Shown: positions 27,450 through 43,643 of the stretch, piece by piece
Numbering within the stretch: the first letter of the stretch is position 1
Layout of the letters: each line of letters begins with the position of its first letter
From: an uncultured Gemmatimonadales bacterium
Lineage (GTDB): Bacteria; Gemmatimonadota; Gemmatimonadetes; Gemmatimonadales; GWC2-71-9
DNA: 64,000 bases
Assembly (NCBI GenBank): GCA_963844035.1
Contig: CAWJMT010000009.1
Location: 64,001 to 128,000 of the forward strand
Reading direction: 5' to 3'
The notes under the pieces: model-generated
Told to the model about the DNA's origin: nothing
Seen by the model: only the letters and a program-made list of their open reading frames with translations
The model's database searches: none
Made by a program: the position numbers and the translations under genes

Positions 27450-28800
27450 CTACTTGCCTACGCAAAACGTCGCGAAGACGCGCTCGAGCACATCGTCAGG
27501 CGTCACGGCGCCGATCAGCTCGTCGAGCGCGCCCACGCTCGCCCGCAGGTGGGTGGCCGCGGCTACGGCATCCACTCCGTTCGCGCGCGCCGTGTGAAAC
27601 GCCTCGATTTCGCCGAGCGCACGCTCGAGCGCCACGCGGTGGCGCGCGCGCGTCACCACCGGCTCCACGTCACCGAGGCGCAGCAGCTGGCCGAACGCGA
27701 CTTCGGCGAGGCGACGCCGTAGGGCATCGAGACCTTCGCCGGTCATCGCCGAAACACGAGGGAAGGGGGAAGAGGGAAGAGGGAAGGGTAAATCTGCTTT
27801 CGTGTACACAGTAACGACCGGAGCTGTGCACTGCGCAAGGAACTCGTCACGCGCATCCCCTTCCCCCTTCCCCCTTCCCTCTTCCCCAATCGCTTCGCAG
27901 AACAAGATCAGGTCCGCCGCCGCGAGGTAGCGGCGACTCACTTCGATCCCGAGCCGCTCGACGTGATCCTCGCTGTCGCGCAGGCCCGCCGTATCGACGA
28001 GCCGGAACGGGAAGCCTTCGATCACGGCGGTCGCCTCGATCGCGTCCCGTGTGGTGCCGGGGATCTCGGTGACGATGGCGCGCTCGCGCCCGAGCAGCGC
28101 GTTGAAGAGCGACGACTTGCCCGCGTTGGGCCGGCCGGCGATGACCAGCAGGGCGCCTTCGTGGAGTCGTTCCCCCTCGGGCGCAGTTTTGACGAGCTGC
28201 GCGAGCCGGTCCCGCACGACGCGCCAGGTACGCGCGACGCGCTCCGGACTCACAGGGCCTTCGTCCTCGTCGGGAAAGTCGATGTCGTACGCCAGCAGCG
28301 CCTCGAGCTGCGAGCAGATCGTCGCGCAGTGCCTCGAGCCGCTGGGACAGGCCCCGGTCGAGCTGCTGCAATGCGTGCCGGCGCTGGACGGGAGAGGCTG
28401 CGTCGATCAGGTCGGCGGTGGCTTCGGCCTGGAGCAGGTCGAGCTTGCCGTTCAGGAGCGCCCGGCGGGTGAACTCGCCGGGAGGCGCGGGGCGGGCACC
28501 GGCGGCGACGAACGCCGCAACGGCGTCCGCCGGGACGAGCAACCCGCCGTGGGTGAACACTTCCACCATGTCCTCGCCGGTGTACGAGCGGGGCGCCGCA
28601 TACCAGGCGACCAGCGGTTCGTCGATCAAGTCGCCGGCGGCGGTGACGAGGCTGGCTCGCCGCATGGTGCGCGCGGCGTCGGGGAACGGGCGCAGGCAGC
28701 GCGCCGCCACTTCGCGCACGCCGGTGCCCGACAACCGGATCACCGCGACCGCGGAGCGTCCCGGTGGGGTCGCGAGGGCCACGATCGGATCCGACAACAC
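27450..28800 (-). CDS. mnmE: tRNA modification GTPase MnmE, frameshift near 28310
   Basis: IVALATPPG, PRSYTGED, PGEFTRRA, GRPNAGKSS, PGTTRD, DTAG, C-terminal FCVGK. Confidence 0.95.
27760..27886. repeat. Inverted pair of 7-bp tandem arrays inside mnmE
   Basis: (GGGAAGR)x4 at 27760-27787; (YCTTCCC)x4 at 27859-27886. Confidence 0.85.
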
Positions 28801-28828
28801 CGCTCCCCCGACCCCCCTTCCCTCGTGA

Positions 28829-30482
28829 CTACGTGGTCTTGCCCTGCTGTCGCAGCCGCCGTTGCGCGATCAGCCACTGTTGCGGAATGCTGAAGATGTT
28901 GGAGACCGCGTAGTACAGGTTCAACCCCGCCGCGAATCGGTAGAACAGCACGGTCATCATGATCGGCATGAAGTACAGCATCATCTTCGCCTGCGGGTTC
29001 GGCGGCACGCCCATCTGACCGACCTTGGAGAGCACAAACATCGACAAGCCCCATCATCACCGGGATGATGTAGTACGGGTCGTGACGCGAGAGATCCGGC
29101 AGCCAGAGGAAGGGGACGCCGCGGAACTCGATCGTGTTGGCGAACACGAAGAACAACGCGAACAGGACCGGCATCGGGATCAGCATCGGCAGACAGCCGC
29201 CGAACGGATTGACCTTATGCTCCTTGTATACCTTGAGCATCTCCCGTTGCAGCCGCTCGGGATCGTCTCGGTGTTTATCCTGCGTCGCTTTGATCAGCGG
29301 CGCGGCGGCCTGCATGCGGATGCTCGATTCCATCGCCTTCTGGTTCAACGGCCAGAGGACCAGACGGACCGCGATGCCGAAGATGACCAGCACCCAGCCG
29401 TAGGGAAGTTGGAGCCGCTCGTGCATCCACAACAACACCGTCTCGACGAGGCTCGTCACCGGCTGGATCAGGGGACGGAAAAATCCGCCGTAGGGGTTGG
29501 CGTTTTCGAGGTCGTGCCCGATGCGCTCCAGGCGCCGGTATTCGAGCGGGCCGATGTACATCTGATAGCGAAAGCCCCCCGCCGGCGCGACCGGCAACGT
29601 GACGGCGACCGCCATGCGGGTGGCCGTCTTCCCCTGGCGCGGACCGCCCACCGCGATGCTGCCGGCAAGCTTGGGATGGTTCTCCTCGAGCGCGAGCGCG
29701 GCCAACAGGAAGTACTTCGACTTGAGGGCCACCCACTCGAACGGACCGTCGAGGATCCTCTGCTCGCCCGGCTTGAGCGACGAGAACGCCGTGCTCTGCG
29801 TTTTGGCCGCCTTGGTGACGACGGCGAAATGGCGGAAATCGTCGACGGTATCCGCCTCCACCGACCGCGGCCCTTCGCCGAGTCCGAGGACGAGGACGGC
29901 CCCTGTCGGGCCCAGGCCGGTGACGCGGCCGAGCGCCGCGAAGCGGTACCCCTCGGGGTCGAACACGTATTCGAGGGTCACCGTCGCGCCCTGGCGTTCG
30001 CCCGAGAAGGTGAGCCGCGTATGTTCGCCGTCGACCTGCAGGGCACGAGTGCTCGGCTCGAACACCCAGTCACTCAACGCCACCGTGTCCCCGCCCACGA
30101 CCAGGCGAGTCGCCAGCACCGAGTGCCCGGCGGGCACGAGCTGTACGACCCCACCGCTGTCCGCAGGGGCAAACGACCGATAGCGAAGGAGTTCCGCGGC
30201 TACCAGCTGACCCCCGGCGGTGCTGAAGCCGAAGCGAGTGGTGGGGGAGGTGACCCACACCGTCTCCGCTGACGCGGAGACGGGGGCGGTCGGGCGGTCG
30301 GCCGGTCGGCCGGTCAATCGCGAGGTGCCTGCCGTTGAGTCGGGAGCCGGCGCCGGGTGCGACGTGTCTTCGACCGCCTGTCCGCCCGGCCGCCCGACCG
30401 GCTTCTTCGGCGGAAACAGGATGCTCGGTATCACTGCCACGCCGAGCATGAGGACGATTGCTAAGATGAGCCGTCGGTCCAC
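28829..30482 (-). CDS. yidC: Membrane protein insertase YidC, frameshift near 29045
   Basis: YGW..IFG..VR...WPL, NPFGGCLPMLI, FLWLPDLSRHDPYY, GLNLYY..SN...QQ. Confidence 0.93.
30285..30402. repeat. Inverted pair of 8-bp tandem arrays inside yidC
   Basis: (GSCGGTCR)x4 at 30285-30316; CGACCGCC/TGTCCGCC/CGGCCGCC/CGACCGGC at 30371-30402. Confidence 0.8.
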
Positions 30483-30488
30483 GAGTCC

Positions 30489-30716
30489 TCAGGGTACCGG
30501 GTCGAACCCGCCGGGGTGAAAGGGGTGGCAGCGAAGAATCCGCTTCGCGCCGAGCCAGCTCCCTTTGAGTGCCCCGTAGCGTTCGACCGCCGCGAAGGTG
30601 TAGTGCGAGCACGTCGGAGTGAAGCGACACTGCGTCAACATGTACGGGGCCAGAGTGACCTGGTACGCGCGGATCATCCCCATCACGGCAAGGCGAGGCC
30701 AGCGTCGCGGGTTCAT
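30489..30716 (-). CDS. yidD: Membrane protein insertion efficiency factor YidD
   Basis: [27 protein letters not shown]; located between rnpA and yidC. Confidence 0.93.
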
Positions 30717-31235: not shown

Positions 31236-31296
31236 AACGTACACCGCGCCGCGCGCCGCGGTCAAGGTTGACTTTTCCACAGGCGGGTCATAGCTT
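31236..31296. promoter_or_regulatory. Back-to-back rpmH and dnaA promoters with a DnaA box
   Basis: Plus strand TTGACT(31268)-17 bp-TAGCTT(31291) with TTTTCCACA (31273-31281) in the spacer; minus strand TTGACC-18 bp-TACGTT toward rpmH. Confidence 0.65.
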
Positions 31297-31336
31297 CGCG
31301 CTGCCCTTCGAAACTCCCACCCTTATTTCAGCATCG

Positions 31337-32723
31337 ATGGAGCAGTCCACAAAAGAAGCTTGGAAGCGCCTGCTCGACGAGGCGCGCCGTGAACTACCCG
31401 ACGCGACGGTGCGGACGTGGCTCGAGCCTATTGAGCCGATCGCACTGGACGACGGTCGACTGCTCGTCGGCGCGCCCGATCAGTTCGCCGTGGAGTGGAA
31501 CGAGTCGAAACACGCCGGCGTGCTCGCGCGCGCCGCGGAGCGCGTTTTCGGCCGGCCCACCACCGTGGTGTTCCGCGTCCAGGAAGATCGCCAGCAGCGC
31601 CCGCAGATGGACTTCTTCGTCGCTCCGCGTGAAGCTGCCCGCGGGAACCGAGAAGCCATCCGCCGCCACGACGCCGCTCAACGAGCGCTACACGTTCCAG
31701 ACGTTCGTGATCGGCAAATCGAACGAGCTGGCCGCGGCCGCGGCGCACGCCGTCGCGGAAGCGCCCGGCAAGACCTACAACCCCCTGTTCATCTACGGCG
31801 CCACCGGCCTGGGCAAGACGCACCTGATGCAGGCGATCGCCCACGCCGTCCTGCAGCACAATCCCGGGACGCGGTTGCAGTACTTCGGCGCCGAGCAGTT
31901 CATCAACGAAGTGATCGAATCGATTCACGCCCGCACGATGTCGGAGTTCCGGCGGCGCTATCGCAACGACGTGGACCTCTTCCTGGTGGACGATGTGCAT
32001 TTCCTCGAAGGCAAGGAAATGACGCAGGAGGAATTCTTCCACACCTTCAACGCGCTGTTCGAAGCCCACAAGCAGATCGTCCTGACGTCCGATCGCCCAC
32101 CGAAGGAGATCCCGGGCCTCGAGGACCGGCTGATTTCGCGGTTCGAGTGGGGCATGGTGGCGGACATCGGCCACCCGGATCTCGAGCACCGCATCGCGAT
32201 CCTGCGGAAGAAGGCGGAGCAGGACCACCTCGAGCTGACCATTCCGGACGACGTGCTCCGCTTTATCGCCGAGCATGTGCGGTCGAGCGTGCGCGAGCTC
32301 GAGGGCTGCATCATCAAGCTGTTGCTGTTCGCCTCGCTCAGGAATCGCGAGGTCACGATCGAGCTCGCCCGCGAGGCGCTGTCGGACAAGATCCGGCAGG
32401 GGGAGGACAGCGCATCGTACGCCGACCAATCGACGCCCAGCATCGATCGTGTCCAGGAAGTGGTGGCGCGCCGCTGGGGCGTCACGCCGGAGGGGCTGCG
32501 CTCCAAGGTCCGCACCAAGACGCTGACGATTCCCCGTCAGGTGGCGATGTACCTGGCGCGCAACATGCTGGGGATGCAGCTCGTCGAGATCGGCCAGGCG
32601 TTCGGCGGGCGCGATCACTCCACCGTGATCCACTCAGTGGACAAGGTCGAGCGACAAATGATCCGGGATCGCATGTTCAAGGAGCGCGTGGAAATGGCGC
32701 GACAGGAGTTGTCCGCACTGTAG
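31337..32723 (+). CDS. dnaA: Chromosomal replication initiator DnaA, frameshift near 31630
   Basis: YTFQTFVIGKSN, YNPLFIYG..GLGKTHL, QEEFFHTFN, RQVAMYL, GGRDHSTVIH. Confidence 0.97.
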
Positions 32724-32940: not shown

Positions 32941-32958
32941 CGAATGCAGCGGGATGGC

Positions 32959-34065
32959 ATGAAGTTCACGATCGCGCGCGAGCAGTTACAGGAAGGCATG
33001 GCCGCTGTAGCAGCAGCCATCCCGGCGAAGACCACGCTCCCGGTCCTCGCCAATGTCCTGGTTGAGGCAGGTAAGCACGGGCTGCGCCTGTCCGGCACCG
33101 ACCTCGACATCGCCGTGAGCACCACCGTCCCCGCCGAGGTCGATGCCGAGGGCGCGGTGACCCTCCCCGCGAAAAAACTGATCGACATCGCTCGCGAGCT
33201 GCCGAGCGGACCTGTGCGCGTGACCGCCGCCGGCGAGTCGCGCGTCTCGATCGAGTGCGGGCGCTCGAAGTTCAAGCTGCTGGGCTTGCCCCGCGAGGAG
33301 TTCCCGTCCTTCCCCGCCGTGAAGTTCGACGGCGCCTGGAAAGCCGCGGCGGGAGTCGTGCAGAAGCTGGTGGGGCACGTCGCGTTCGCCGCGTCCACCG
33401 AAGAGAGCCGGCCGATCCTGAACGGCGTGCTGTGGGAGCTGCGCGCCGACCGCATGCGGATGGTGGCGACGAACGGCCACCGCCTGGCCAAGATGGACGT
33501 GCCGGCGAGCGGCGGCTCGACCGCCGACCTCATCGTCCCGCCCAAGGCGCTGGAGCAGATCCGTCGCTTGATGGCCGGCGATGCCGACATGGAAATTGCG
33601 CGCAGCGACAACCATATCGGCTTCCGGGCGGGCAGCACGCTCGTGTTCTCGCGGCTCATCGAAGGGCCCTATCCGAACTACGAGCAGGTGATTCCGAAGG
33701 AGAACGACAAGTCGGCGACGGTGGACCGCATGGCGATGGCGGCCGCGCTGCGGCGCATGAGCGTGGTCGCGAGCGACCAGACGCACCGCATCCGGCTCGC
33801 GTTCTCAGGCGGAGCAGTGAAGTTTTCGGTCCAGACGCCGGATCTCGGTGAGGCCCAGGACGAGCTCGCCGTGACCTACGAGGGCGAACCCCTCGAAATC
33901 GGGTTCAACGCGATGTACCTGCTCGAGATCCTCAAGTTCATGCCGACCGACGAAGTGCGCCTCACGTTCAAGGCCCCCGAACGCGCGGCGACCATCGAGC
34001 CGGTCGGATGGGACGACCCGGCGAGCTACATGGCGCTGGTCATGCCGCTCCGTCTCGTGGATTGA
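32959..34065 (+). CDS. dnaN: DNA polymerase III beta sliding clamp
   Basis: TLPVLANVL, GTDLDI, SRPILNGV, VATNGHRLA, EGPYPNY, LVMPLR. Confidence 0.97.
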   Translation: MKFTIAREQLQEGMAAVAAAIPAKTTLPVLANVLVEAGKHGLRLSGTDLDIAVSTTVPAEVDAEGAVTLPAKKLIDIARELPSGPVRVTAAGESRVSIECGRSKFKLLGLPREEFPSFPAVKFDGAWKAAAGVVQKLVGHVAFAASTEESRPILNGVLWELRADRMRMVATNGHRLAKMDVPASGGSTADLIVPPKALEQIRRLMAGDADMEIARSDNHIGFRAGSTLVFSRLIEGPYPNYEQVIPKENDKSATVDRMAMAAALRRMSVVASDQTHRIRLAFSGGAVKFSVQTPDLGEAQDELAVTYEGEPLEIGFNAMYLLEILKFMPTDEVRLTFKAPERAATIEPVGWDDPASYMALVMPLRLVD

Positions 34066-34150
34066 CGGCCGCGGGGCCGTCCTCGGCCCCACTTTGCCGT
34101 CCCGATCCGTCCCGCGTTATCATTCTGGCCCATTTCGAGCCGGAGTTCGT

Positions 34151-35449
34151 GTGCCCGTAACACCAGTCGCACTGGGAGAATTCGCGAGCGTCGGCTCGGA
34201 GCTCCGGCTCATGTCCCATCGAGTGACCGCCGTGGCCCTCGGCGCCGCCACCCGGTACGAGGGAGGGGCGCTCACGGTCTCGGCGGCCGAGCTGCGCGCG
34301 GTGCTCGCCAACAGCGCGATCGCGGACTTCCGCGTCTCATGGGTCTCGCCCGGAGACTCAGCCCGCATTGTGAAAGTGCTCGACGTGGTCGAGCCTCGCA
34401 CCAAGGGGACCGGCGGCGCGGGAATCTTCCCGGGCTTTCTGGCGCTCCCGCCGCTCGAGGGCACAGGGGTGACTCACGTCCTCCGCGGGACCGCGGTGAT
34501 CGCCGCGGGCTACCTGCCACGGGCCCAGGAAGCCGTCATCGACATGTCGGGGCCGGGCGCCGCGCTCACGCCGTTCGGTGCGACCCACAACCTCGTCGTC
34601 GAGTTCACGCCTGCCGAGGGAGCGTCGTGGGAAAGCGTCGACATCGCCGTGCGTCTCGGCGTATTGAAGGTCGCCGCGCTGCTCGCCGGGGCCGCGCTCG
34701 ACGCGCCGCCGGACGAGGTGGTCACGCTTCCCGCGATCCCGCACGCCCGAGCGAGCGGCCTCCCGCGCGTCGGCGCCATCACCAATCTGCAAACGCAGGG
34801 CACGTTCAAGGACATCTTCGTGCACGGTAAGAGCTTCAGCCGCTCGGCGCCGACCCTGATCGATCCCAACGAGCTGCACGACGGCGCGGTCGTGAGCGGC
34901 CAATTCGGCCACCCGGCGCTCAAGAATCCGACGTACATGCATCAGAACCATCCCGTGGTGGCCGAGCTGCGGCGCCGGGACGGCAAGGATCTCGAGTTCG
35001 CCGGACTGATCCTGGCCCCGGAGCCGGTCGAGGCGGAGCAGAAAGAACGCGTGTCGAAGCAGGCGGCCGAGCTGTGCGCTGCCGCGAACTTCGCAGCCGT
35101 CGTGATCACCAAGGAAGGCGGCGGGAACGCGGACGCCGATATCTCCCTGAAGATGGACGCCCTGACCGAGTTCGGAATCGGATCGGTGGGGCTGTTCGCC
35201 GAGATGGCGGGCGCCGAAGGGACGGCGCCGTCGCTCGTCGTGCCTCCGGACAAGGGCACCGCGCTGATCAGCACGGGAAACTATGACGAGGTGGTGCGCC
35301 TGCCGGGTGTCGCGCGTGCGCTGGGGGGCGACACGATCGACGTGGCCAGCACGGCCGCGACCGCGGAGGTCGATCTGCCCACCGCGGTGCTGTACTGCTC
35401 GCTCTCGCCGATCGGCGCCGGGCGGCTCACCTGTCGCGAGGCGGCATGA
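34151..35449 (+). CDS. Glycine/sarcosine/betaine reductase component B alpha/beta subunit homologue (GrdE/G/I family)
   Basis: PGDSARIVKVLDVVEPR, IDMSGPGA, PNELHDGAVVSG, KNPTYMHQNHP, EGGGNADAD, ISTGN. Confidence 0.85.
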   Translation: MPVTPVALGEFASVGSELRLMSHRVTAVALGAATRYEGGALTVSAAELRAVLANSAIADFRVSWVSPGDSARIVKVLDVVEPRTKGTGGAGIFPGFLALPPLEGTGVTHVLRGTAVIAAGYLPRAQEAVIDMSGPGAALTPFGATHNLVVEFTPAEGASWESVDIAVRLGVLKVAALLAGAALDAPPDEVVTLPAIPHARASGLPRVGAITNLQTQGTFKDIFVHGKSFSRSAPTLIDPNELHDGAVVSGQFGHPALKNPTYMHQNHPVVAELRRRDGKDLEFAGLILAPEPVEAEQKERVSKQAAELCAAANFAAVVITKEGGGNADADISLKMDALTEFGIGSVGLFAEMAGAEGTAPSLVVPPDKGTALISTGNYDEVVRLPGVARALGGDTIDVASTAATAEVDLPTAVLYCSLSPIGAGRLTCREAA

Positions 35450-36729
35450 GCCGGGTCGTCCACTACCTCAATCAGTTCTTCGCCGGGTTCGGCGGCGAGA
35501 ATGCCGCGTCGACTCCTCCCGGCGTCAAGCCGGGATCGGTGGGCCCCGGCAAGAAGCTTCAGGAGTTTCTCGGGGCGGAGCACGAGATCGTCGCGACCGT
35601 GTATTGCGGCGACGACCTCGCCGCGGCCAGCACCGACGCGATTGCAGCCGTGCTCGAGCTGGTGGTCCAGGCACGCCCCGACATCGTCATCGCCGGTCCC
35701 GCGTCGACGAGCGGCCGCTACGGTGTCGCGTGCGCACGCGTTGCGGCCGCAGCTGCGCGCGCCGGCATCCCGGCGATCGCGTCCATGCATCCCGAGAACC
35801 CCGGCCTCGACGACGCCGGCACCGCCGCCGTGGTCGCGAGCGGCGCGTCGGTTCGCGAGATGGGCGCGAGCCTGGAGCGATTGGGCCGCGCGGCCCGCAA
35901 GCGCTTGGCCGGAGAGCCGCTTACCGAAGCGGACGGCAGAATCGGGAAGGTCCCGCGCAAGAACGTGCTGGTCGATCGCAACGCGGCGAGCCGTGCGGTG
36001 GACCTGCTGCTCGCGCGGTTGAACGGGCGCGACGAGCCTGCCGAGGTCCCGATCCCGCGCTTCGATCACGTAGCCCCTGCCCCACCGGTGGCGGACGCGG
36101 CTCAGGCGGTGGTCGCGCTGGTGACCGAGAGCGGCCTCGTCCCCGTCGGCAACCCGGACCGGCTCGAGTCCGCGCGCGCGACCCGTTGGCTGCACTACTC
36201 GATCGCAGGGAAAGCGACGGCGCCGGCGGGAGAGTACATGTCGGTGCACGGCGGCTACTCCACGGTCTGGGCGAACCAGGACCCCAACCGTCTGTTGCCG
36301 CTCGACGTGGCACGCGAGCTCGAGAAGGAAGGCCTCATCGGCTCGCTGCACGGTGAGTACCTCGTGACCACGGGGAACGGCACCACCGTGCCGAATGCGC
36401 GCCGCTTCGGCGTCGAGTGGGCGGCGGAGCTGCGACGCGCGGGGATCACCGCCGCGATCCTGACCGCCACGTGAGGGACCGGAACGCGTTGCGGGTCAAC
36501 GCTTGCGAAGGAGCTCGAGCGGGCCGGGATTCCGACGGCGGTGCTCTGCAACCTCGTATCGGTGGCGGAGCGCGTGGGGGCCGTGCGCATCGTTCCCACC
36601 CGCGGCATCCCGTACCCGACGGGCGATCCGTCGCTGCCGCCCGCCGAGGAGCGCGCGTGGCGGCGCACGCTCATGCTCCGGGCGCTGAAGGCGATCGCGA
36701 CGCCGGTCACCGGGCCGACGCAGTTCTGA
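35446..36729 (+). CDS. grdB: Reductase selenoprotein B (GrdB/F/H family), Sec at UGA 36472-36474
   Basis: VVHYLNQFFAG, HGGY, DPNRLLPLD, TTGNGT; frame continues through TGA as LTAT-U-GTGTRCGSTLAKELERAGIP...IPYPTGDP. Confidence 0.9.
36486..36502 (+). promoter_or_regulatory. Bacterial SECIS element for grdB
   Basis: 17-nt hairpin GCGTTG-CGGGT-CAACGC starting 11 nt after the in-frame TGA. Confidence 0.7.
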
Positions 36730-36730
36730 C

Positions 36731-38152
36731 GTGAGCGGATTCCCCGTTATCTCCGCGGCGAGCCAGGTGCTCGCCCATACGCCCGGCCTCGCACGCCACG
36801 GGTCGAAGCCAAGCCGCGAGCTGCCGAAGGACGCGGCCGTCGAGCGCGCCTTCCTCGCGGCGCTGCGCGATTTCGAGCACGCGGTGAGTTACCCGGCCCA
36901 TCAGGCGTATCTCGGCGCGATCCACCCGCGCGACCTGCCGCCCCGGCCCTGGGCGAATTGCCTGTCGAGCGCTGCCTCGCGCTTTACCCCTGACGGCGAG
37001 ATCATGCCCGAAGAGGAGTTCCTGGGCCTGCTCGCCGCGATCGACGAGTTCAGCCTGCTGACGCTCGAGCCCGCCGTCGCCGACCGCGCGGGCGCCGCGT
37101 TGGCGCAGCACCCCCTCGGCTCGCGGCTCAAGCTCGGCCGGCTCGAGCAGGCGCGCGGGAACGGCGGCGACGCGGGGGCGTTGCCGTTGTTCGTCGGGAC
37201 GCACCCCGCCGGCGCAATGAAGCGGGCACACGACACGGATGAGGCGCTGACCGCCGGCGTGCTGCTCGAGAACCTCTGCGGCAAGGGCACCGCCACCCTG
37301 GCGTTGCTGCGGCTGCTGCACGCCAATGACATCGACCCGGCCTCCATCGACTACGTCCTGGGATGCGGCGAAGAAGCGATCGGCGATCGCTACCAGCGGG
37401 GGGGCGGCAATCTCGCCAAGGCGGTCGCGGAGTCCGCTGGGTTGACCGAGGCCTCGGGCGCCGACATCAAGGACTTCTGCGCCGCGCCGGTGCCGGCGCT
37501 CGTGATCGCGGCGAGTCTCGTATCGGCGGGCGTCTTCCGGCGGGTCGCGGTCGTGGCCGGCGGCTCGCTCGCCAAGCTCGGTATGAAGTTTCAAGGCCAC
37601 CTGGCCAAGGGCCTGCCGGTGCTGGAGGACGTCCTGGGTGGAGCCGCGGCGCTGGTCGAGGCGGACAACGGAGCATCGCCGGTCATTCGACTCGACGCCG
37701 TCGGGCGGCACCGCGTCGCGGCGGGAGGATCGAATCAGCAGATCATGGAGGCGCTCGCGATCGAGCCGCTGGCTCGCATCGGGTTGTCGCTGACCGCCGT
37801 CGACGACTTTGCGACGGAGCTCCACAACCCTGAGGTCACGGAGAGCGCGGGTTCGGGGAACGTGCCCGACCGGAACTATCGCACCATTGCCGCACTCGGG
37901 GTCCGCCGGGGCGACATCCCCCGCGACCAGATGGACGCCTTCGTTCGGGACCGGGGCATGACGGGGTTCTCGCCGACCCAGGGTCACCTGGCATCCGCGC
38001 TCTGTTATCTTCCCCACGCGCTGCGCCGCATCAAGAGCGGGGCGGCCGAGCGAGCCATGCTGATCGCCAAGGGCAGCCTGTTCCTGGGTCGCATGTGCCA
38101 GTTGTCGGACGGAATGTCGGTCATACTCGAACGCAATCCACGAGGAGCGTGA
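36731..38152 (+). CDS. grdC: Glycine reductase component C beta subunit (FabH-like)
   Basis: LENLCGK, CGEEAIGDRYQRGGGNLAK, FCAAP, AKLGM, ELHNPEVT, GFSPTQGH, KGSLFLGRM..LSDG. Confidence 0.9.
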   Translation: MSGFPVISAASQVLAHTPGLARHGSKPSRELPKDAAVERAFLAALRDFEHAVSYPAHQAYLGAIHPRDLPPRPWANCLSSAASRFTPDGEIMPEEEFLGLLAAIDEFSLLTLEPAVADRAGAALAQHPLGSRLKLGRLEQARGNGGDAGALPLFVGTHPAGAMKRAHDTDEALTAGVLLENLCGKGTATLALLRLLHANDIDPASIDYVLGCGEEAIGDRYQRGGGNLAKAVAESAGLTEASGADIKDFCAAPVPALVIAASLVSAGVFRRVAVVAGGSLAKLGMKFQGHLAKGLPVLEDVLGGAAALVEADNGASPVIRLDAVGRHRVAAGGSNQQIMEALAIEPLARIGLSLTAVDDFATELHNPEVTESAGSGNVPDRNYRTIAALGVRRGDIPRDQMDAFVRDRGMTGFSPTQGHLASALCYLPHALRRIKSGAAERAMLIAKGSLFLGRMCQLSDGMSVILERNPRGA

Positions 38153-38155
38153 ACG

Positions 38156-38500
38156 GTGGCTGGTGCGCTTGCCGAGGCGACGAAGGAGAACTTTCGGGAT
38201 GTGGTTGCGAGCGGATGGGTCCTCGTGGACGTGTGGGGACCCCAGTGCGCGCCCTGCATCGCGTTGATGCCCGACGTCGAAGCGCTGGCGCAGGCGCGGC
38301 ACGACGTGACATTCGTCAAGCTCGACAGCACGCAGGCCCGGCGGCTGTGCATGGAGCTGCGCGTGATGGGCTTGCCGGCCTTCCTGCTGTTTCAGGACGG
38401 CCAGGAAGTGGGGCGTATCGGCGGACAGGATATCAATGCGGCGCGGTTGACGACGTGGCTGGATGAAACCCTCACGGCGAATCGAAAGGAGGGGAACTAG
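38156..38500 (+). CDS. Thioredoxin of the reductase operon
   Basis: VDVWGPQCAPC, LRVMGLPAF. Confidence 0.9.
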   Translation: MAGALAEATKENFRDVVASGWVLVDVWGPQCAPCIALMPDVEALAQARHDVTFVKLDSTQARRLCMELRVMGLPAFLLFQDGQEVGRIGGQDINAARLTTWLDETLTANRKEGN

Positions 38501-38504
38501 CGGC

Positions 38505-38969
38505 ATGCTCAAAGAACGACTGGTCATCGCCCTGGGAGAGCGGGACGGGCTCTCGGGTCCGGCGATCGCTGCGTGCGTGACGGCGGCGGGCGGAACCGTC
38601 GCGTTTGTCGCGACGGAGTGCTTCGTCTGAACGGCGTCGGGCGCCATGGACGTGCAGAGCCAGGACGCGATTAAGCGCCTGGCGGATCAGCACGGCAAAG
38701 ACAAGCTGCTGGTTGTCCTCGGTTCACCAGATGCGGAAAGCGCCGAGATCGCAGCCGAAACTGTCGTGCTGGGAGATCCCTCGTATGCAGGTCCTCTGGC
38801 GGGAGCCCAGTTGGGGCTTATGGTGCATCACATGCTGGACCCGGAAATCCGCGCGCAGGTGCCGGCGGATGTCTGGGAGGAACAGATCGGAGTGATGGCC
38901 GACGTCTTGAACGCCGGGGCGTTGACTGCTGCCGTCGCAGCGATGCGGGCACGGGGGGCGGGCGCGTAG
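38505..38969 (+). CDS. grdA: Reductase selenoprotein A, Sec at UGA 38628-38630 (codon 42)
   Basis: Hand translation MLKERLVIALGERDG...TECFV-U-TASGAMD...AETVVLGDPSYAGPLAG...WEEQIGVM; RBS AGGAGG. Confidence 0.92.
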
Positions 38970-39127: not shown

Positions 39128-39892
39128 TCAGAGAATCGAGCGCGAGCGCGGGTTCAAGGGCACGATCGGCGTGGTGTCACTCTCCTCCACCTCCCGCGGC
39201 ACGAGGACATCCACGCCGTGATAGCGGGCGAGGATCAGGGCGCGCCTGGCCAGCATCCGATCGGACTGGTAGCGGGGATTGGAGCTGCGTGGATGCGGCA
39301 ACGTTGCGACGAGTGCGGCGGCCGCGCCCTCGCCGAGCCGGGACGGGGGCACGCCGAAGTAGCTCCGGCTCGCCGCCTGAACCCCCCAGATACCCGGGCC
39401 CCACTCCGCCACGTTCAGATAGAGCTCAAGGATTCGCGCCTTGGGGAGCGCCAGCTCGAGCCGGAACGCAGTCACCGCCTCCTTCACCTTGCGTAGCAGG
39501 CTCCGTGACGGCGAGAGGTAGAGATTCTTGGCGAGCTGTTGGGTGATGGTGCTCGCTCCCCGCATCCGGTCGCGCCGTCGCCACACCGTCCGCGCAACGC
39601 TCCAGACGCCCCGGCCCTGCTCGATCCCCAACGCGTCCGCCATTTCCGCCGGGTCGAATCCGTGGTGCGTCCAGAAGCGTGAGTCTTCCCCGATAACGAC
39701 CATGCGTTGGAGCGCGGGGGAGATCTCGGCAAGGGGAGTTGGACGTACCCTGCCCGCCTGCCCGCCCACCCGCCTTCCCGCCGCCTCTCTCATCATCGCC
39801 GTCTCGCGCGGCCAATGATCGCGCCACCAAATCGGCGGCGGCCAGACGCCGAACAGCCACACGACGCACAGTGCGCCTATCCCTAGCGCCAT
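39128..39892 (-). CDS. mtgA: Monofunctional peptidoglycan transglycosylase (3' tail possibly frameshifted)
   Basis: EDSRFWTHHGFD, GASTITQQLAKNLYL, RKVKE, ILELYLNVAEWG. Confidence 0.9.
   Translation of the reverse strand: MALGIGALCVVWLFGVWPPPIWWRDHWPRETAMMREAAGRRVGGQAGRVRPTPLAEISPALQRMVVIGEDSRFWTHHGFDPAEMADALGIEQGRGVWSVARTVWRRRDRMRGASTITQQLAKNLYLSPSRSLLRKVKEAVTAFRLELALPKARILELYLNVAEWGPGIWGVQAASRSYFGVPPSRLGEGAAAALVATLPHPRSSNPRYQSDRMLARRALILARYHGVDVLVPREVEESDTTPIVPLNPRSRSIL
39751..39782. repeat. 8-bp tandem array inside mtgA
   Basis: TGCCCGCC x2, CACCCGCC, TTCCCGCC. Confidence 0.7.
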
Positions 39893-39923
39893 CCGGCGCG
39901 CCTTCCTAGGTTTTCCGTCCGCC

Positions 39924-41342
39924 ATGTCGCTGGATCTTCCCCGCCTCCGCGCCCGCCTGCAAGAGGCCCTCGGAGACCAATTTAAAGTCGGTGCGCTGCT
40001 CGGCGAAGGTGGATTCGCCGCAGTATTCCGCGTGCGCGACAAAGCCATGCGCCGCGAGGTCGCGGTGAAAGTGCTCGATCTCGGTCTGACGCCGTCACCC
40101 GAGCTCGCGGAGCGGTTCGTGCGCGAGGCACGCACCGTGGCGAAGCTCGAGCACCAGCACATCGTACCCATCTACAAGGTGGGCGGCTACCAGAACGAGG
40201 TGCTGTACATCGTCATGCCGTGCGTCGACGGGCCGTCGCTGCGGCAGCTGCTCGACAAGCGCGGTCGCATGCCGATCGCCAAGGCGGTGACCATCGCCCG
40301 CCAGGCCGGCGCAGCGCTGGGGTACGCCCACCAGCAGGGCGTGGTGCATCGGGACGTCAAGCCGGACAACATCCTGCTCGACGGCGGCAGCGAGGTGCGG
40401 GTCACGGATTTCGGCATCGCGAAGGCCGCGGAAGCCGCATCCGGAGCGAACCTCACGACCGAAGGAATGGTCGTCGGCACGCCGCAGTACATGAGCCCCG
40501 AGCAAGCCACCGGGGACAAGATCGGGACCCGCTCGGACATCTACTCGCTCGGGATCGTGCTCTACGAAATGTTGGCGGGGAAGGTGCCGTTCGAAGGCGA
40601 CTCAGTGCAGTCGATCCTGATGAAGCAAGCGACTGCCGACCCGGCGCCGATCCGCGAAATCCGCAGCGAAGTCCCGCCGGAGCTCGCCGCGGTGCTCGAC
40701 CGGATGCTCTGCAAAGCCCCTGGTGAACGGTTCGGCACGCTTGCCGAGCTCGACGCGGCGCTGGTCGCGGCCGTACCGGCCGCGGCACGCAAGCGGAAGA
40801 CCGGGCAGGCGGGCACGGTCACGGGGGCGGCGTCGTCTGTCGCCGCGGCCGGGGTCGCGGCCGCCCTCGGCGTCGGCGCGCTGGTGGCCGGAGGCATGCT
40901 GGTGAGCTGGGTCGCGCTCGACCGCCCGCCGAGAGTGCTGATCACGCAGCCGGTCTCAGACAGCGTCAACACCTCGCTGCGGCGCCGCGGCATCCTGGCG
41001 GTGAACGACACCGCCGTGTTCGCGTTCAGTCCAGCTGGCAGGGAGGAGCTGACGCTGTTCATCATCGCCCGGCGGCGGGTGGTGGTGGCGGAGCCCCATC
41101 GGTTGCGCGGGTACGCTCGGGACAGTGTCGCGTACACCTTCGTGCCCGGCTGGCGCGCCGGCCCGCGCTTCTTTTTCTTGTTGCTTCCCGCGCGGGCGCG
41201 GCCCGACACGGTGTTTGCGACGCTGTCACCGCGCGGGCTGTGGGCGATCGGGCGCGGCGTTGACGGTCTGCTCCCCGGCGGAATCCGGTTGCGGCCCCGC
41301 CCCGGCGCTCAGCGCCCGGCGGTGCGGGAGATCAGTCCGTAG
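39924..41342 (+). CDS. Hanks-type Ser/Thr protein kinase with TM segment
   Basis: GEGGFAAV, VAVK, HRDVKPDN, DFG, GTPQYMSPE. Confidence 0.93.
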   Translation: MSLDLPRLRARLQEALGDQFKVGALLGEGGFAAVFRVRDKAMRREVAVKVLDLGLTPSPELAERFVREARTVAKLEHQHIVPIYKVGGYQNEVLYIVMPCVDGPSLRQLLDKRGRMPIAKAVTIARQAGAALGYAHQQGVVHRDVKPDNILLDGGSEVRVTDFGIAKAAEAASGANLTTEGMVVGTPQYMSPEQATGDKIGTRSDIYSLGIVLYEMLAGKVPFEGDSVQSILMKQATADPAPIREIRSEVPPELAAVLDRMLCKAPGERFGTLAELDAALVAAVPAAARKRKTGQAGTVTGAASSVAAAGVAAALGVGALVAGGMLVSWVALDRPPRVLITQPVSDSVNTSLRRRGILAVNDTAVFAFSPAGREELTLFIIARRRVVVAEPHRLRGYARDSVAYTFVPGWRAGPRFFFLLLPARARPDTVFATLSPRGLWAIGRGVDGLLPGGIRLRPRPGAQRPAVREISP

Positions 41343-43039: not shown

Positions 43040-43284
43040 GAGTGCGGCTCGGACGCAGGCGTTGTGGCGCGGTCGGACTTGGTGCGCCCGAACACCGCGA
43101 TCAATTCCGGGCCATCGCTCGAAACCCGCAGCAGCTTCCAACCGCGTTTCCCCATGTCGGCACGCCACCCGATGAGCTTTTCCCATTCCTCGCTCGTGGT
43201 GCGGAAAACGCGTAAGTCGGCTACGGTTTCCCACTGGGGTGGGTACGGCTTCGGCGTCGGGGACGAAGGTGGGGGCAGGGCCAT
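43036..43284 (-). CDS. Small hypothetical protein
   Basis: 82-aa ORF whose stop overlaps the next start (ATGA); start codon lies in the rnpB 3' end. Confidence 0.55.
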   Translation of the reverse strand: MALPPPSSPTPKPYPPQWETVADLRVFRTTSEEWEKLIGWRADMGKRGWKLLRVSSDGPELIAVFGRTKSDRATTPASEPHS

Positions 43285-43643
43285 AAGCCGAGTTCTGTTT
43301 GTCCACCCGAAAGCGGACAGATGGTCATCTCTCTGGGATGGCTGTCGCCAGCCACCTCGACGCGGCCTACCCGCAGCTCAAGCGACCCGGGTCGAGTCTC
43401 GCTGCTTATTTGGCCTTGCTCCGACTGGGGGTTACCGTGCCACGCCTGTTGCCAGGCGCGCGGTGGGCTCTTACCCCACCGTTTCACCCTTACCCCTGCA
43501 TCAGGGGCGGTTTGTTTTCTGTGGCCCTGTCCGTCGCCTTGCGGCGCCCAGGCGTTACCTGGCAGTCTACCCTTTGGAGCTCGGACTTTCCTCAGCGCAC
43601 CATGCCTGCCGGCGCACCGCGACCATCGCGCCCTACCACCACC
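43268..43643 (-). ncRNA. rnpB: RNase P RNA (class A)
   Basis: Minus strand GAGGAAAGTCCGAGCTCC, GGGTGAAACGGTGGGGTAAGAGCCCACC, ACAGAACTCGGCTTA; P1 GGTGGTAGGGC pairs with GCCCTGCCCCC. Confidence 0.95.

Follow-up and report, generated by a model that had tools for sequence, protein, structure and literature searches.

The stretch of DNA analysed here (hereafter the window) comprises 64,000 nucleotides of contig CAWJMT010000009.1, positions 64001-128000, from the genome of an uncultured Gemmatimonadales bacterium (GCA_963844035.1, here G000, with the contig as C9; completeness 83.7%). On its forward strand lies a compact cassette of five genes related to the selenium-dependent glycine reductase (Grd) system, in the order grdE-grdB-grdC-trx-grdA, flanked upstream by the host gene dnaN and downstream by a convergent mtgA (Table 1). 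Both grdB and grdA contain an in-frame TGA for selenocysteine (Sec). A gene for GrdD is lacking from the cassette and was found neither elsewhere in this genome nor in related ones. A tightly spaced grd operon behind dnaN, in a probable Gemmatimonadota host, had been proposed in an earlier sequence-only reading of the window; we confirm all five genes and their positions, and the Gemmatimonadota assignment is supported by its congeners G002, G004 and G005, which correspond to Gemmatimonadales records.

Successive genes of the block are -4, 1, 3 and 4 nt apart, too close for grdD, a thioredoxin reductase gene (trxB) or grdX to fit into the cassette; for grdX this negative result covers the locus only, as no genome-wide search for it was made. 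The ratio of nonsynonymous to synonymous substitution rates (dN/dS), computed for 15 gene pairs with congeners, ranges from 0.08 to 0.30, and for grdC alone from 0.11 to 0.16. Soil metagenome contigs span both the dnaN-grdE and the grdA-mtgA junctions, in a run possibly connected with the source sample, and the contig across dnaN-grdE argues against misassembly. Short contigs from three soil RNA runs cover the cassette and the flanking DNA alike, and we do not take them as a sign of transcription. The cassette is intact and under purifying selection.

Table 1. Genes and candidate elements at the grd locus (positions within the window)
Feature	Position	Strand	Evidence and remarks
dnaN, host gene upstream, outside the cassette	32944-34065	+	TIGR00663, 313 bits
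GC-rich hairpin right after the dnaN stop, possible terminator	34073-34090	+	RNA fold; terminator scan made no call there
Match to a sigma-70-like promoter, perhaps belonging to the cassette	34094-34123	+	Weak: 9/12 matches; 1 found vs 0.3 expected in shuffles
grdE-like (protein B subunit)	34151-35449	+	PF09338, 338 bits; alternative start ATG at 34211
grdB, Sec343, TAT-U-GTGTRC	35446-36729	+	PF07355; TIGR01918, 411 bits vs cut-off 65; TGA at 36472-36474
SECIS-like hairpin 3' of the grdB TGA	36486-36502	+	Third-position conservation; consensus hairpin
grdC, 473 aa, DFCAAP motif	36731-38152	+	NF040746, 556 bits vs cut-off 450
Thioredoxin gene (trx), WGPQCAPC	38156-38500	+	PF00085; top NCBIfam model clostridial TrxA, 92 bits, under cut-off 140
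grdA, CxxU (Cys39, Sec42), ECFV-U	38505-38969	+	NF040748, 191 bits vs cut-off 130; TGA at 38628-38630
mtgA-like transglycosylase, host gene, convergent	39128-39925	-	PF00912, 158 bits

Absence of GrdD and the shortened GrdC

A genome-wide search for grdD, suggested alongside the sequence-only reading, returned none in this genome or its relatives. The search set held 82 genomes (5 of this genus, 46 of the soil clade and 31 more distant), chosen by similarity to this GrdC (the best 80 of 227), all of which may be incomplete. The GrdD model NF040747 exceeded its cut-off in 0/82, with a best score of 30 bits, as compared with 549-581 bits in 3/3 canonical control records. A profile search for the Cys-bearing catalytic C-terminal domain of GrdD (SGMGCTGP) recovered 3/3 controls and was negative in all 76 genomes covered, and a six-frame search of G000 found no such domain. 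A distant GrdD, a GrdD fragment and a stand-alone Cys domain were each looked for, and none was found. Six genomes flagged as unpublished (G061, G065, G069, G091, G096, G106) are included in the 82-genome GrdD count, in a 77-genome acetate kinase count and in the tallies of locus neighbours, GrdC tails, residues, motifs, TGA codons, SECIS (selenocysteine insertion sequence) elements and the GrdB tree. They were left out of the BCCT, heme-copper oxidase and 76-genome GrdD-domain counts; of the two analyses that group the Gemmatimonadota rows in one clade, one includes and one omits them. Their removal leaves the GrdD result unchanged. In a sample drawn evenly rather than by similarity, 401 genomes from the phylum of genome G117, 21 have GrdC and 6 have GrdD.

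The sequence-only reading had entertained a distant PlsX/GrdD-like partner. This idea is not supported: the sole PlsX of G000 sits in an ordinary plsX-fabH-fabD-fabG cluster. It is the one weak match of the GrdD model, at 17 bits, and the protein begins directly at the first strand, with neither the N-terminal helix nor the Cys-bearing domain of GrdD. These profile searches indicate that GrdD is missing from this genome and from related genomes, not misplaced.

The C-terminus of GrdC differs between the two kinds of locus. GrdD-less GrdC ends 23-34 residues past the GSLF motif in 81/81 C-termini that could be scored (including some duplicates from a single genome), whereas GrdC adjoining grdD extends at least 55 residues past this motif and closes with an amphipathic helix in 75/75 cases (80 loci minus three without GrdC, one fusion and one broken copy). 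The sequences behind these counts are related, and the counts are not independent events. In the sample from the phylum of G117, the tail is present in 6/6 genomes with GrdD; of the other 15, 13 are without it and two could not be scored. GrdC-GrdD fusion proteins (P0011, P0013, P0015, P0016, P0054 and L196) possess neither the GrdC tail nor the GrdD N-terminal helix. They are 840-860 aa long (P0054 partial; L196:4598-7150) and dispersed on the GrdD-paired side of the tree. The tail resembles the GrdD N-terminal helix (hhalign 93%), a likeness that any short amphipathic helix might show, and we infer that the two helices may join the subunits. Complex prediction on alignments A2 and A3, for the canonical GrdC and GrdD of L137, gave a score of 0.01 and, having been run without controls, counts neither way. 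The tail offers a simple sequence marker separating GrdD-paired from GrdD-less kinds.

The structural model of GrdC (predicted local distance difference test score 93.9) has a thiolase/FabH fold and matches FabH, OleA, PqsC and HMG-CoA synthase with Z scores of 21.5-23.3 and root-mean-square deviations of 3.1-5.1 Å over 247-291 aligned residues. GrdC shares fold and catalytic cysteine position with FabH/KAS III-like acyltransferases (FabH, OleA, PqsC, PhlABC, HMG-CoA synthase), but is only 11-22% identical to them, carries Glu363 in place of the catalytic His and has ~150 extra residues. Taking the residue roles as generally known for FabH, Cys250 aligns with the catalytic cysteine and Glu363 with the catalytic His, while hhalign yields no settled correspondence between His419 and the FabH Asn. 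Cys250, Glu363 and His419 are invariant in 106/106 GrdC rows, 28 of them GrdD-paired. The cysteine of the DFCAAP motif, which the sequence-only reading had pointed out, is therefore not specific to the variant; throughout the Grd systems GrdC has the look of a catalytic enzyme, in the window no more than elsewhere. Alignment further picks out K26, R220, K247 and K286 as clade-specific basic residues of GrdC, considered in connection with a possible CoA-binding channel.

Selenocysteine decoding and the substrate of protein B

In both grdB and grdA the TGA stands at an identical position in 45/45 distinct soil-clade rows. Codons +4 to +9 after the grdB TGA have a third-position conservation of 0.98-1.00 (45 rows); the same conservation and fold analysis showed no clear conserved SECIS hairpin in grdA. 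The Sec machinery was also recovered, as the sequence-only reading had left to be checked: tRNA-Sec and selD (intact, Cys form) are encoded elsewhere in G000, and selA (G000:C35:264033-265353) and selB (C3:152940-154801) are present with one frameshift apiece. We read these frameshifts as assembly errors because dnaA (window 31268-32723) has the same defect here but is a single frame in congeners, and because selA (at full length) and selB exceed their cut-offs in 5/5 congeners. yidC and mnmE (window 27450-30500) are likewise split across reading frames, and the grd cassette is free of such breaks. The splits in dnaA, yidC and mnmE suggest single-base assembly errors. Thioredoxin reductase had been noted as missing, which is correct for the operon but not for the genome, where trxB is present. 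Elsewhere, selA and selD directly adjoin a cassette in L051 (2674-5125), as does a selD-like gene in L079 (6441-7382).

By its GrdA, its GrdB with partner, its GrdC and the Sec machinery, the cassette is assigned to the Grd reductase superfamily. The glycine reductase of Peptostreptococcales (L134, Acetoanaerobium noterae) is built from the same gene families, with 35-43% identity per subunit, and shares the CxxU of GrdA, the T-U-G setting of Sec in GrdB and the cysteine motif of GrdC. In contrast to it, the cassette is without GrdD, the GrdC tail, the pyruvoyl cysteines of GrdE, one cysteine of GrdB and an in-operon trxB; it fails the glycine motif, and its hosts have heme-copper oxidases (family found in 44/45).

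Several departures lie in protein B. GrdE reads GQFGHPALKN where the glycine type has GNCVSACDKN, so that both pyruvoyl-forming cysteines are gone, and GQ[FY]GHP is found in 43/43 soil-clade GrdE rows (one a duplicate). According to the accessible part of PMC10838667, the GNCVSAC cysteines give rise to the pyruvoyl group, and neither betaine GrdI nor FarE has them. The Sec343 motif of GrdB, U-G-T-G-T-R-C, is without the first Cys of UxxCxxC. Protein B exceeds the cut-off of the broad family only (TIGR01918) and falls below the models for glycine (TIGR01917, 379 vs 602 bits), sarcosine (GrdF, 422 vs 800 bits; GrdG, 234 vs 780 bits), betaine (GrdH, 371 vs 775 bits), proline (GrdE under the PrdA cut-off) and fluoroacetate (FarE, 128 vs 675 bits). 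The glycine GrdB motif of Nobu et al. (PMC9751293, accessible part) occurs in 0/43 soil rows as against 28/43 canonical rows; soil-clade GrdB fits neither of the motifs given there in 43/43 rows. The GrdF sarcosine motif was found in 0/43 soil rows, in a set that held no positive example. In the GrdB tree the soil clade forms a separate long branch (100% Shimodaira-Hasegawa-like support).

Two known reductases come close in some of these respects. The alpha subunit of betaine reductase GrdH/GrdI (L133, Enterococcus gilvus) is likewise without the canonical pyruvoyl motif, but reads GSFMPCSSKW where GQFGHPALKN stands here, and it falls on another branch of the GrdB tree; its locus has grdD and a BCCT transporter, whereas the cassette hosts mostly lack BCCT, and GrdD was found in none of them. 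Fluoroacetate reductase FarB/FarE of Cloacibacillus also has a non-proprotein E subunit and a B subunit without CxxC, showing that the scaffold can act on a haloacetate (accessible part of PMC10838667). Far comes with a dedicated transporter and a radical SAM gene, and the same source proposes that it supplies the usual proteins A and C; our cassette is without a transporter or regulator. Some GrdD-less syntroph loci (L077, L084) have a glycine-type protein B, and GrdD loss and substrate change are therefore separate events. For the cassette itself, the substrate is probably not glycine.

Two further GrdD-less operons, Syntrophorhabdus-like (L086:3089-9925 and L087:3135-9932), carry the canonical GrdE cysteines. 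Upstream of both lie genes of the epimerase family and of the class I/II aminotransferase family, which may represent a threonine-to-glycine route (tdh, kbl).

Proposed reaction and its alternatives

Our preferred reading, which we hold at a probability of about 40%, is that this mobile five-gene reductase finishes its reaction on GrdC alone, probably as acetyl-CoA, and that glycine is likely not its substrate. In line with the Grd cycle outlined in the accessible part of PMC10298544, Sec343 of GrdB would attack X-CH2-COO- and expel its leaving group, after which Sec42 of GrdA would take over the carboxymethyl group. GrdC would cleave the selenoether and capture the C2 unit as acetyl-Cys250, while GrdA would be returned to its reduced state by thioredoxin together with the TrxB encoded elsewhere in the genome. 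For this variant, the acetyl group would leave GrdC by thioester exchange with CoA; we propose this exit because GrdD is absent and CoA exchange is the usual exit of thiolase-fold enzymes. Since there is no pyruvoyl group, X would depart without Schiff-base activation, as a halide or onium group. We favour detoxification or salvage of an X-CH2-COO- type compound in an aerobe over an energy-yielding fermentation. In favour of the acetyl-CoA reading stand the absence of GrdD and its catalytic domain, the missing GrdC tail and its pattern in the fusions, the fold and cysteine position of GrdC, the lost pyruvoyl motif, the lack of acetate kinase and Pta domains in G000, the presence of acetate kinase in only 31/77 other GrdD-less genomes, and the heme-copper oxidases of the hosts. 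A broader and more tentative proposal would make GrdC, usually viewed as protein C's accessory half, the true selenoether-cleaving, acetyl-capturing enzyme (Cys250/Glu363/His419), with GrdD as an optional phosphorolysis add-on, attached by helix pair or fusion, and with the GrdD-less branch running a new substrate to acetyl-CoA.

Several points weigh against the acetyl-CoA reading. The genomes are incomplete, and selA and selB are frameshifted in this assembly. The invariance of Cys250, Glu363 and His419 extends to GrdD-paired GrdC, so these residues are no mark of a changed function. His365 was considered as a marker of GrdD-less proteins, being present in 40/40 soil and 25/29 deep rows vs 1/28 canonical rows, but was rejected as it also occurs in 4/6 GrdD-paired Desulfobacterota. 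Cys359 of GrdD has been reported as the acetyl-carrying thiol, and to our knowledge GrdC had no proven catalytic role. No non-Grd neighbour family occurs in more than 8/85 loci, and no conserved neighbour points to a substrate. The presence of BCCT transporters in 2/45 hosts speaks against betaine and names no other substrate. Acetate kinase is encoded in 3/5 genomes of this genus.

The acetyl-GrdC thioester might simply be hydrolysed to acetate, making the system a pure detoxification or electron-sink enzyme. This would suit a cassette with neither GrdD nor an acceptor gene in aerobic hosts that need no substrate-level ATP, and a relative, D-proline reductase, conserves no energy (accessible part of PMC10298544). 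We nevertheless regard hydrolysis as fairly unlikely: keeping a 473-aa thiolase-fold subunit under such strong selection (dN/dS as above for grdC) just to waste the thioester would be less economical, and tail-less GrdC is also found in Syntrophorhabdus and Syntrophobacteraceae, where saving it would matter. It is unlikely, too, that acetyl phosphate is still the product, whether GrdC makes it unaided or an unrelated protein encoded elsewhere does, for instance housekeeping PlsX or Pta. PlsX is a distant relative of GrdD, if only a weak match to its model, and acetate kinase occurs in 31/77 other GrdD-less genomes as well as in the genus. But PlsX belongs to a fatty-acid cluster and has neither GrdD element, the tail that accompanies a separate partner is gone from GrdC, and searches of G000 for acetate kinase and Pta domains came back empty.

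Altered chemistry, in which the transferred unit is not acetyl or the acyl-Cys serves condensation or another acceptor, for example in the repair of carboxymethylated cell thiols, appears improbable. The long branch of soil GrdB with its misfit to both published motifs, the cassette's want of a transporter or regulator, and the condensing enzymes and acyltransferases among the nearest folds are consistent with it; GrdA and GrdC, however, exceed their curated family cut-offs, and since L077 and L084 combine a tail-less GrdC with a protein B of the glycine type, such a GrdC can serve the ordinary C2 route. It is very improbable that the cassette is decaying as a relic or that assembly lost GrdD. 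Such a view could draw on the incompleteness of G000 and the two frameshifts, but GrdD is missing from all 82 genomes, dN/dS is low throughout the cassette (0.08-0.30), selA and selB exceed their cut-offs in congeners, and the essential dnaA shows the same type of frameshift in this assembly.

No description of a GrdD-less Grd system was found in the full-text literature searched, subscription journals being outside its scope, and the accessible parts of PMC12674515, PMC3091704 and PMC1794560 contain nothing on one. The system matters beyond this genome. A natural GrdD-less system isolates GrdC and makes the protein C step directly testable; this conversion of a carboxymethyl selenoether to an acetyl thioester is still called speculative in the accessible part of PMC10298544. 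Genomes labelled 'glycine reductase' from GrdA and GrdB alone may neither use glycine nor gain ATP from it, and Grd selenium chemistry occurs in soil bacteria that respire oxygen. Taken together, the sequence-only interpretation is supported in part; it had not noticed that GrdE has lost its pyruvoyl site and GrdC its tail, nor how broad the GrdD-less clade is.

Genomic position and spread of the cassette

The sequence-only reading had remarked on the site behind dnaN as a place often taken by recF/gyrB. Immediately behind dnaN, 5/5 congeners have mtgA or a Ser/Thr kinase gene, without a cassette and with no recF/gyrB to be displaced, and the four cassette-bearing congeners carry the cassette away from dnaN, in three other settings. 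The dnaN site is an incidental insertion. A functional tie to dnaN and a loss of recF/gyrB were both rejected on this congener synteny.

GrdC was found in 3/401 sampled Gemmatimonadota genomes, all of them in this genus, and in 5/7 genomes of the genus. The nearest copies outside the phylum, among the best 80 of 227, are actinobacterial, at ~62-73% identity. Six Gemmatimonadota rows form one clade among the actinobacterial rows, and actinobacterial monophyly is not rejected by the approximately unbiased test (p 0.29). Rarity in the phylum, scattered settings and actinobacterial closest copies make horizontal transfer of the cassette likely, for which we name no donor or direction. The GrdD-less branch as a whole takes in soil Actinomycetota, Gemmatimonadota, Dehalococcoidia, Entotheonella and syntrophs.

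Some gene arrangements in the wider set differ from that of the window. In one actinobacterial lineage (L041, L043, L044, L045, L047 and L050), grdC and the protein B genes have no trx or grdA behind them, and a DAO-family FAD oxidoreductase gene lies nearby. Hydantoinase/oxoprolinase A and B genes stand directly upstream of GrdD-less grd genes in L080 (1329-5202) and L101 (4104-7964), an assignment checked against Pfam for L080 only. Two tandem grdA genes occur in a canonical operon on a Photobacterium replicon (L135:7971-8908). In G000, C5 (196821-205925) and C21 (6140-20394) share one set of tRNA genes (Trp, Glu, Glu, Lys), by duplication or contamination. Finally, a class A RNase P RNA (RF00010, 295 bits) is encoded on the reverse strand of the window at 43268-43639.

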